Positions 26,855-50,414 of a stretch of 64,000 bases of DNA are shown one piece after another. The stretch is taken from assembly GCA_930979925.1 (NCBI GenBank), contig CAKNIB010000008.1:217-64216 (forward strand). The letters run 5' to 3'. Numbering within the stretch: position 1 is the stretch's first letter; every line of letters begins with the position of its first letter. A program made the translations under genes and the position numbers. The notes beneath the pieces were generated by a model. It had not been told where the DNA came from. It made no database searches and saw only the letters and a list, made by a program, of their open reading frames with translations. This stretch comes from an uncultured Clostridia bacterium (lineage in GTDB: Bacteria; Bacillota; Clostridia; Christensenellales; UBA1242).

Positions 26855-26882
26855 ATATTACCCCCCCCGAATTTTTTGTCAA
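26855..26882 (-). promoter_or_regulatory. promoter TTGACA-16-TAATAT with a G8 tract in the spacer
   Basis: Minus strand reads TTGACA AAAAATTCGGGGGGGG TAATAT. The C8 run occupies 26861-26868 on the plus strand. It lies ~80 nt upstream of ATG 26773. Confidence 0.55.
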
Positions 26883-46931: not shown

Positions 46932-47897
46932 TTATGTTCTAGACATTCCGTAAACGCCAGAAGAACCTTTCAGCCATTCGGCAGCAGTTGATGGATCTGC
47001 AAGAGTTTCTTCATCAATATCTCCATGTGCAAATGTCCAGCCTGTTGGAATCTCATAGTAAGCTAAAGCTAAACTATTGCAATTAGTGAAGGCACCAGAA
47101 CCGATGGCTGTCACACTCGATGGAATTGTTATTGAGGTTAAACTGCTACAACCACTGAAAGCATATCCTCCAATACTTGTCACACTATCTGGGATTGTAA
47201 TTAATGTTAAACTACTACATCCGCCGAATGCATTATTACCAATGGCTGTCACTGTAGCAGTTCGTCCATTATACTGAACTGTTTCAGGAATGATTACAAC
47301 TTCTGCATCTGGACTACAACTTGCAACACTTACACTTTGTCCACTTCCACTATTAAGTGAATAGGTTAATGTACCTAAAACGGTTTCATTGATATTTATT
47401 GTTATCATTGATAAATCTATATTTTCAAGATTTGGGTTTGATACAGTTAACTCTAATGTTGTTGTAATAGGTGTTTCTGAGGTTATAGTTGTTACAGTCT
47501 CTGTATTTGCTGAAATTAGGTTAGTTATATTTATCTCTATACCAGTTATACTACTTAGTCCACTATAATCTACATTAACTAAATAAGTGTTAGTTGTAGT
47601 ATTTATTATATCAAAATACAATGCAAATGAGCCTCGGTTATTATTATGATCGCCTACATTAAAGTTAAAGTCTCCGTTGATGTAGCCTGGAGTAAAGTTT
47701 GAGATTATGACTGGGTCCTCTCCTGCCTCTTGCATTCTAACCTCTTTTACCCATAGGCTTTTATCATTTACATTAAAGTTTACACTACCATTCATGGTTA
47801 TTGTTTGACTACTTGCGGCTAGCACTCCAGCTACTACCAGTCCAAGGACTAGAATAAAAGCACTTATTAATGACAGCAGTTTTAATTTGATTGACAT
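46932..47897 (-). CDS. secreted BspA-type leucine-rich-repeat (LRR_5) protein, paralog B
   Basis: The ORF opens at 47909, but GGAGG precedes ATG 47897 (MSIKLKL...). The N-terminal ~170 aa are ~70% identical to paralog A. The C-terminus has [59 protein letters not shown]. Confidence 0.85.
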
Positions 47898-48035
47898 TTT
47901 TACCTCCATTTTCTTTAGTATTTGATAAATTATTTAAATTATTACCTAGTTTACAATCTTATTTTATATTTAAAAATAATTGTCACTTGGGTGACGATTT
48001 AGCAAATTTCAAAGAATTTAAAATTTGCTAATTTC

Positions 48036-48060
48036 GCGCCTTCGGCGCGGGCTAAAAAAT
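48036..48060 (-). promoter_or_regulatory. conserved GC hairpin block in the leader of LRR gene B
   Basis: (C)GCGCC-TTC-GGCGC(G) plus GGCTAAAAAAT, matching 26796-26820. Confidence 0.5.
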
Positions 48061-48395
48061 ATTTTACATTTCGCGTTATGCTATAACACCCCTTGCGTCT
48101 AACCCCATAAAATCTCACGATTTTATGGGCACCCGACCGGGTCCTTATTACGAAGAAAATTCCAGAGGAATTTTCGAGGAGGTCGGAGGGGGAGTTCTAC
48201 CCCACAAATTATAAAATTTGTGGGGAGCCCCGGGGTGGGGAACCGAAAATATTTTTTATCACGAAGTGTAAAAAATATGTGTTTTAGCGGTTAGACGCGC
48301 ATAAGCGCGTCGTGCCCGCGTTTCATTTTTCTTAAATTAAAAAATTTAAGAAAAATGATAAAACTTGGGTTCCACCCTAAAAGCGATAGCTTATT
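48061..48395. other. ~335-nt GC-rich, hairpin-dense insertion between promoter and GC hairpin of LRR gene B (structured RNA or MITE-like element)
   Basis: Perfect hairpins lie at 48105-48128, 48155-48175, 48200-48225, 48294-48311 and 48323-48358. There is a 10-nt long-range complement between 48095-48104 and 48289-48298. Absent from the equivalent position of copy A, where only 34 nt (26821-26854) occupy this position. Confidence 0.5.
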
Positions 48396-48420
48396 TTACC
48401 CCCCCCGAATTTTTTGTCAA
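48393..48420 (-). promoter_or_regulatory. promoter TTGACA-16-TAAAAT with a G8 tract in the spacer (twin of 26855-26882)
   Basis: Minus strand reads TTGACA AAAAATTCGGGGGGGG TAAAAT. The C8 run occupies 48399-48406 on the plus strand. Confidence 0.5.
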
Positions 48421-48536
48421 GCGATTTTACGCTATTTTTGAAAATTGTTGAAAATTTTTGCATGAATTCTTAATTTCAAAATCTTTTATACGACCGCATG
48501 AAGCGAGCGTGATGGATTTGGTGTCACGCCAAGCAT

Positions 48537-48791: not shown

Positions 48792-50414
<1,623 letters not shown>

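Follow-up and report, generated by a model that had tools for sequence, protein, structure and literature searches.

The leader of one leucine-rich-repeat (LRR) gene in an uncultured Clostridia bacterium contains a long, GC-rich and hairpin-dense block, and the question is what this block is and what it does there. The stretch of DNA analysed (64,000 nucleotides, contig C8:217-64216; hereafter the window) belongs to a 97%-complete genome of 1.13 Mb with 36% GC. The block lies in an 882-nt spacer between groEL (48792-50405, minus strand) and LRR gene B (46932-47909, minus strand), which encodes a BspA-type leucine-rich-repeat surface protein (Pfam LRR_5, E = 2.9e-20). As the original prediction had pointed out, the leader of gene B is much longer here than that of its relative copy A: from GGCTAAAAAATA to the AGYGATA...-10 region there are about 315 nt in B and about 22 nt in A. 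Three identities had been offered for the extra DNA, namely a large structured leader or riboregulator, a free-standing non-coding RNA (ncRNA), and an insertion resembling a miniature transposable element (MITE). The last comes closest in that a dispersed repeat family was found, whereas a dedicated riboregulator is unsupported. The block is a complete copy of a dispersed, modular, structured repeat that is restricted to a clade of small-genome gut Clostridia, and it probably rides as a passenger in the leader of gene B.

Structure of the block and its surroundings

The copy in the window extends from 48062 to 48380 on the plus strand, the G-rich sense strand of the family, as delimited by nhmmer, covariance model R1, an identical copy on contig C2 and the comparison of filled with empty leaders, and is about 317 nt long. 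The raised GC content noted earlier was confirmed, at 42-50% in 100-nt windows over 48050-48250 versus 36% for the genome and about 20-30% for neighbouring intergenic DNA, and so was the lack of coding capacity, no ORF of at least 40 aa being present within the region. Both strands fold better than dinucleotide shuffles (plus strand, -126 kcal/mol versus -79.8 +/- 5.9, z = -7.9; minus strand, -124.6 kcal/mol versus -77.0 +/- 5.3, z = -9.1), with none of 100 shuffles folding as well on either strand. The five perfect hairpins that had been reported are all present, but the first is of 11 bp rather than 10 bp and starts one base earlier (48104-48114/48119-48129); the others have 9 bp (48155-48163/48167-48175), 11 bp (48200-48210/48215-48225), 7 bp (48294-48300/48305-48311) and 16 bp (48323-48338/48343-48358). 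A sixth perfect hairpin of 10 bp (48249-48258/48269-48278) had been overlooked.

The element consists of two domains: a 5′ domain with hairpins P1 and P2 and then a G-rich tract, and a 3′ domain (48233-48380, defined by the R1 match, the fold and covariation) in which the closing helix P3 surrounds P4 and P5. On the plus strand of the window, the 5′ lead-in (TTTTACATTTCGCGTTATGCTATAACACCCCTTGCG..., 48062-48103) is homologous to the TTTACTTAACGTCATAAAAATATACCCC stretch preceding other copies, and is followed by an optional 26-nt mini-hairpin, CCCATAAAATC-TCAC-GATTTTATGGG (48104-48129), which comes from a separate mini-hairpin repeat. P1 (48132-48141) is a short hairpin, CCC-GACC-GGG, that covaries between copies as CCC/GGG, GCC/GGC and GUC/GAC, and P2 (48155-48175) is a 9-bp hairpin with a family-conserved AGA loop and a stem that differs wholly between subfamilies. 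The G-rich linker (48176-48232) contains Shine-Dalgarno-like GGAGG runs, which may pair with a CCUCC-like tail, and is interrupted by a second optional mini-hairpin (48200-48225). Within the 3′ domain, P3 (48233-48247 with 48364-48378) encloses P4 (48249-48278), P5a (48281-48285 with 48360-48364), P5b (GCGG 48287-48290 with CCGC 48316-48319) and P5c (48294-48311), and P5b is separated from the 3′ strand of P5a by an additional, inserted A/T hairpin of 16 bp (48323-48358). On the minus strand, several loops are of the GNRA type.

The insertion site is bounded on its left by the GC hairpin GCGCCTTCGGCGC (48040-48052), which is common to empty and filled LRR leaders. On the other side lies a minus-strand promoter with a poly-G tract, TTGACA-16-TAAAAT (48393-48420; 11/12 consensus matches), whose predicted start point is about 6 nt from the 3′ edge of the element. 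Two further minus-strand features were called by consensus scan only: a weak terminator-like hairpin with a T run (47982-47995) and, between this hairpin and the ATG of gene B, a promoter-like TTGTAA-16-AATAAT (47956-47929). At 48512-48534 on the plus strand, sequence comparison also identified an orphan 3′ tail (GATGGATTTGGTGTCACGCCAAG) belonging to another copy, and the equivalent position at the C2 locus is filled by a whole second copy. The orphan tail directly precedes a 118-nt three-hairpin module.

A dispersed repeat family in the genome

The block is not particular to gene B: other copies occur throughout the genome, in a family of 20-26 members (29 pieces by BLAST, 26 hits by nhmmer and 20 by covariance model in 1.13 Mb). 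The model R1 matches window positions 48233-48380 on the plus strand end to end (41.3 bits, E = 3.5e-10, model positions 1-110). The multiple copies that had been suggested as a sign of a MITE do exist and are dispersed, but only the one on C2 is near-identical to the window copy, the rest showing 68-90% identity in patches. Copies measure 150-270 nt; all lie outside long ORFs, and none was seen within a real coding region. Most are antisense to local transcription. Tandem groups of three are found on contigs C10, C17 and C25, and two minimal copies are located in sense directly before the two 16S rRNA genes (C14:27492-27596 and C3:97592-97699), the two rRNA leaders being identical except over the element cassette of about 225 nt.

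The mini-hairpin is itself a repeat of 26 nt (CCCNNAAAAT-loop-ATTTTNNGGG) with 31 copies in the genome, two of them in the window at 48104-48129 and 48200-48225. Of the 31, 18 lie within the large element, at three different sites, and 13 elsewhere. Its behaviour is that of a second-order insertion. The surroundings of the element are built from further repeat modules: one of about 70 nt with the poly-G promoter (about 25 copies), one of about 120 nt with three hairpins (about 12 copies), and the GC-hairpin module.

Conservation of the fold and of the folding strand

The helices of the family covary. When the 3′ domains of 11 copies from this genome were examined with RNAalifold, compensatory changes were found at 18/34 pairs, and the internal loop is nearly invariant (GCGG-UUAG-[hairpin]-CGUGYC-CCGC). 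Model R1 collected 74 copies from other metagenome-assembled genomes (MAGs), from which 72 distinct sequences were analysed; 93.4% of cells are paired versus 74% in shuffles and double changes occur at 29/34 pairs, figures that somewhat favour the structure because the alignment was fitted to R1. None of 500 shuffles attains these figures, and slid controls do not exceed 57%. The closing helix covaries even between LRR leaders, as GGAACC/GGTTCC in the window and GGGAA/TTCCC in the copy on contig C15.

Family comparison also bears on the long-range pairings that had been proposed. The perfect 10-nt complement of GCGTCTAACC (48095-48104) and GGTTAGACGC (48289-48298) is present in the window, but its pairing is not kept in the family. 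The proposed pseudoknot GGGCAC/GTGCCC is not kept either; the 5′ partners of both pairings are absent from most copies, the diverged C15 copy among them. The long-range helix that is backed by the family joins GGGTGGGGAACC (48233-48244) with GGTTCCACCC (48368-48377).

In 19 of 20 copies the G-rich strand is the more stable one, and consensus pairs contain 67 G.U versus 21 A.C combinations, which favours the same strand. The fold is thus conserved on the G-rich strand, which in the window is the plus strand, and with respect to the family's conserved fold the window copy runs antisense to LRR gene B.

Distribution and contexts in relatives

In an R1 search, 17 of 25 genomes of the same genus were found to have the element, with 1-13 copies each, and the remaining 8 to have none; the same search gave nothing in 16 genomes that represent other families of this order. 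Relatives bearing the element are MAGs of uncultured gut Clostridia sampled from rabbits, mice, chickens and further hosts; the chicken MAGs include a record named Candidatus Caccovivens faecavium. Sense copies immediately precede 16S rRNA, tRNA-Lys/Gln, rpsL, rplK, dnaJ, minD and LRR genes; ahead of 16S they stop 6-14 nt short of its 5′ end, an arrangement seen in both rRNA operons here and in 6/29 other species. For 18 of 64 copies, a convergent gene, such as rpsG in several species, has its stop codon 1-6 nt from the 3′ tail.

Another site is the T-box leader of tyrS, where some species have the element at Stem III, filled leaders being 349-409 nt long versus about 195-230 nt for empty ones. 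In the relatives L179, L186 and L192, it replaces or sits inside Stem III, just before the GGTGGTACCACG box. Most tyrS T-box leaders are without it, and occupancy of any single site is patchy across species. The filled leaders suggest that the closing helix of the element can stand in for T-box Stem III. A role as an essential rRNA-leader or rRNA-processing signal was considered and rejected, because the proximal sense copy is absent from at least 20/29 of the 16S leaders in the genus.

Probable history of the insertion in LRR leaders

The genome has 23 poly-G promoters, which are TTGACA-16-TAAAAT-like with a G7-G10 tract between -35 and -10 and are mostly found ahead of LRR-family genes sharing one signal peptide; two of these promoter modules are in the window, at 26861-26882 and 48399-48420. 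The GC hairpin, where recognisable, is about 50 nt away from the poly-G tract. The element is located between promoter and GC hairpin at only three of the 23 (the window on C8, C2 and C15), with the same left and right junctions, and 20/23 are without it; most paralogous LRR leaders are accordingly empty at the insertion site. The C2 copy (C2:20878-21205) is 100% identical to the window over 48074-48409 (336 nt), while beyond this tract the flanks of the two are about 85-90% identical and the adjacent LRR coding region 78%. In the C15 leader the copy has diverged, and every helix is kept through different sequence. The hexamer CTAAAA is present at either junction in C8 and C2 and is imperfect in C15; the three filled sites seem to go back to a single event.

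Identity of the C8 and C2 copies between differing flanks points to one old insertion followed by cassette duplication or gene conversion, and since the identical tract reaches into the promoter, about 30 nt outside the element, gene conversion is indicated rather than precise transposition. The element would therefore have entered an ancestral LRR leader once and then spread with its cassette or by conversion, although C15 and C8 share junctions but differ in internal modules, which requires an extra gene conversion or repeated insertion. Neither the element nor an LRR cassette was found downstream of groEL in 24 genomes of the same genus. The exact LRR-B protein was not on record in a look-up of other strains, and the other contig retrieved through groEL is identical to the window at this locus.

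Searches for identity and mobility

The block corresponds to no family in Rfam. Rfam 15 at gathering score gave a tRNA as the only match in the 64-kb window, nothing exceeded 29 bits (versus thresholds of 42-113) between 47900 and 48800 at E <= 10, and neither HEARO nor IS605-orfB was matched; no description of the element was found in the published literature. An inverted-repeat scan gave internal hairpins only, with the ends unpaired, so that there are no terminal inverted repeats. In the genome, no match to Y1 transposase (PF01797) and only a sub-threshold match of 17.9 bits to TnpB (PF07282) were obtained. That the element is mobile is inferred from its distribution alone.

Two reverse transcriptase (RT) genes (PF00078) are present, both on contig C7 and away from every copy, and we rejected them as mobilisers, and the element as a retron or group II intron RNA, because neither RT is near any copy. 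One (C7:13308-15869) is a type VI retron RT (PADLOC RT_VI, 230 bits) adjoining an integrase-like ORF. The other (C7:56705-60094; RVT_1, 65.6 bits) has the motif ...GLPIGNQTSQ... and lies beside ORFs of 772 and 127 aa; we take this motif to resemble those of diversity-generating retroelement (DGR) RTs, and the locus may be a DGR. A hammerhead-like reading of P4 was dismissed on inspection, since only the tandem G.A motif is in common and CUGA is missing.

Possible effects on gene B and competing explanations

Judged by promoter consensus, the poly-G promoter would transcribe the reverse complement of the element as the first ~320 nt of the leader, the best-folding strand being the plus strand and antisense to gene B. 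Gene B would thereby get a strongly folded 5′ leader of about 480 nt. The terminator-like hairpin and the second promoter-like site before the ATG mean, on the other hand, that the poly-G transcript might end before gene B, and the element may lie outside the gene B mRNA. Its most probable effect would be a non-specific change of leader length, folding and mRNA stability, and effects on translation are plausible. By analogy with Bacillus 5′ stem-loops, a helix a few nucleotides from the 5′ end could shield the transcript against 5′ exonuclease. Because the element folds closed on itself, it can be tolerated at transcribed non-coding sites such as 16S leaders, T-box Stem III and the bases after stop codons. 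Selection on the fold concerns the strand that is not transcribed here, which fits a passenger and also fits an independent sense-strand RNA.

A dedicated cis-regulatory leader of gene B, that is, a riboswitch or riboregulator on the minus strand, would agree with the position between promoter and gene, with the minus strand also beating its shuffles (z = -9.1) and with the GNRA loops on that strand; it is nevertheless very improbable, as the element is a multi-copy family in unrelated contexts, 20 of 23 poly-G promoters lack it before the GC hairpin, wobble-pair counts favour the opposite strand, Rfam gives no match, and no expression platform is apparent, with neither a minus-strand terminator inside the element nor sequestration of a Shine-Dalgarno sequence. 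We consider it extremely improbable that the element is a classical MITE mobilised in cut-and-paste fashion by a transposase from another locus of the genome. The original prediction had stated that near-identical copies with terminal inverted repeats and target-site duplications would show a simple MITE, but such inverted repeats are absent, and the CTAAAA direct repeat at the junctions is doubtful at best. Dispersed copies whose number differs between species, one identical second copy and the occurrence of CTAAAA at both junctions in C8 and C2 speak for it; the imperfect repeat in C15, the appearance of one event at the three filled sites, the C8/C2 identity that carries on into the promoter for about 30 nt and the lack of a TnpB or Y1 transposase (the families searched) all speak against it. 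A free-standing ncRNA gene on the plus strand with its own promoter, acting as a cis-antisense of the LRR-B leader or on other copies in trans, is quite improbable. It could draw on the conserved plus-strand fold, an extended -10-like TGcTATAAC (48079-48087), a plus-strand terminator-like site (48303-48323) followed by CATTTTTCTT, and the predicted duplex of the LRR-B leader with the C3 and C12 sense leaders (about -120 to -125 kcal/mol versus about -59 for shuffled targets). However, no convincing sigma-70-type promoter with correct spacing was found upstream of the window copy or of other copies, the TTTACTTAACGTCATAAAAATATACCCC lead-in of the copies having no promoter hexamers with workable spacing on the sense strand; the terminator-like site would remove the 3′ strand of the closing helix; and complementarity arises automatically between any two oppositely oriented repeats.

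Two further explanations carry somewhat more weight. A host-useful RNA module would serve, in sense, as a leader or processing element (a cleavage or punctuation site, an aid to folding or anti-termination, or a protein platform) before rRNA, tRNA and highly expressed mRNAs, the LRR copies being by-products or secondary uses. This would account for sense copies 6-14 nt before 16S in both operons here and in 6/29 other species and for those before tRNA-Lys/Gln, rpsL, rplK, dnaJ, minD and LRR genes, as well as for the invariant internal loop, the strong covariation across species and the selection of the fold on the sense strand. We still regard it as unlikely, because the module is absent from at least 20/29 of the 16S leaders of the genus and from most tyrS T-box leaders, 8 of the 25 genomes of the genus are devoid of it, copy number varies between 0 and 20, and many copies, among them the majority of those in this genome, are antisense to local transcription. 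There is likewise a small but appreciable chance that the family is a structured RNA element of an undescribed kind, with a fold that promotes its own propagation or performs some function for the host, either as an RNA-level mobile or self-processing module that settles in highly transcribed leaders (16S, tRNA, T-box Stem III and ribosomal-protein genes), the dispersed copies deriving from sense-transcribed master copies, or as a punctuation or processing signal. Candidate master copies would be, for example, the two rRNA-leader variants, matching the GCGG and GCUG subtypes; such a model would reconcile selection on the G-rich strand with most genome copies facing the other way.

The structured repeat carried as a passenger thus remains our preferred explanation, and the orientation of its copies may have a secondary consequence. 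As LRR leaders carry the element in sense (C3 and C12) or antisense (the window, C2 and C15), their leader RNAs are strongly complementary. Judging from sequence, such leaders could pair and couple the expression of surface-protein variants, which is speculative.

Comparison with known interspersed repeats

On the most economical reading the family is a clade-specific, modular interspersed repeat with the shape of an RNA. Its closest analogues are structured interspersed repeats of the bcr1, BOX and ERIC type, with which it shares many non-coding copies, a narrow taxonomic range with variable positions, and compensatory changes. REPs are palindromes of 20-40 nt moved by RAYT (Y1) transposases, whereas the present genome has no Y1 gene. 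Rickettsia palindromic elements (RPEs) are repeats of small genomes that persist where a self-contained fold spares function, including inside functional RNAs, and T-box Stem III and the 16S leader are comparable sites of our element; RPEs, however, often lie in frame inside protein genes, and no copy of the element was seen inside a real coding region.

Like bcr1 of the Bacillus cereus group, the element is a clade-restricted Firmicute repeat of about 150-300 bp whose positions differ between relatives and whose structure is kept by compensatory changes (PMC3184786). bcr1, which is co-transcribed with neighbouring genes (PMC3184786), is a two-stem cruciform with 5-bp direct repeats, whereas the element has two domains, a closing helix with P4 and P5, optional mini-hairpins and no clear direct repeats. 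With BOX of Streptococcus pneumoniae it shares modularity, a variable number of sub-modules and location in intergenic and untranslated regions; BOX elements have predicted stable RNA folds and are reported to modulate the expression of neighbouring genes (PMC3184786). The 18 of 64 copies that adjoin a convergent stop codon are a further likeness to BOX and SPRITE. Unlike BOX, which is thought to be moved by an insertion-sequence transposase, the element has no such link and no sequence similarity to it, and is found in sense inside the 16S leader and in T-box Stem III. ERIC, REP/BIME and Correia elements of Proteobacteria are structured repeats co-transcribed at gene ends in either orientation, and effects on mRNA stability have been reported for some repeats of this kind (PMC3184786). 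The element is also a structured repeat, its transcription here being predicted from promoter consensus, but it lacks the terminal inverted repeats of ERIC and Correia.

Implications and additional observations

An apparent gene-specific riboregulator is replaced here by a clade-wide family of folded repeats that is listed in no RNA catalogue and accounts for a noticeable part of the intergenic DNA in a 1.1-Mb genome. The family offers a natural experiment on the sites at which a self-closing RNA fold is tolerated, namely ahead of mature 16S, where T-box Stem III would otherwise be, and just after stop codons, and it allows recombination tracts to be traced among the cassettes of phase-variable surface proteins. 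Should the fold itself prove active in processing, protein binding or mobility, uncultured gut Clostridia would have yielded a new class of functional RNA. For the annotation of MAGs, the family should be masked before riboswitches or small RNAs are called.

Two other loci with related features were observed. The C3 16S gene, which starts at C3:97706, has an insertion of about 100 nt in the helix 6/V1 region (about 97790-97890) that contains a P2-like hairpin, GAAAAATTC-GAA-GAATTTTTC; the C14 16S copy is without this insertion, and the relative L222 has a V1 insertion as well. The rpsG-fusA spacer of this genome (C11:7983-8423) contains a different sequence of about 95 nt (aaaaagtgcctaaggcacctaagctcctggtcgaaaatcgtcccgagcc...) twice as a direct repeat, and in several relatives the same spacer has the structured element instead, touching the rpsG stop codon.
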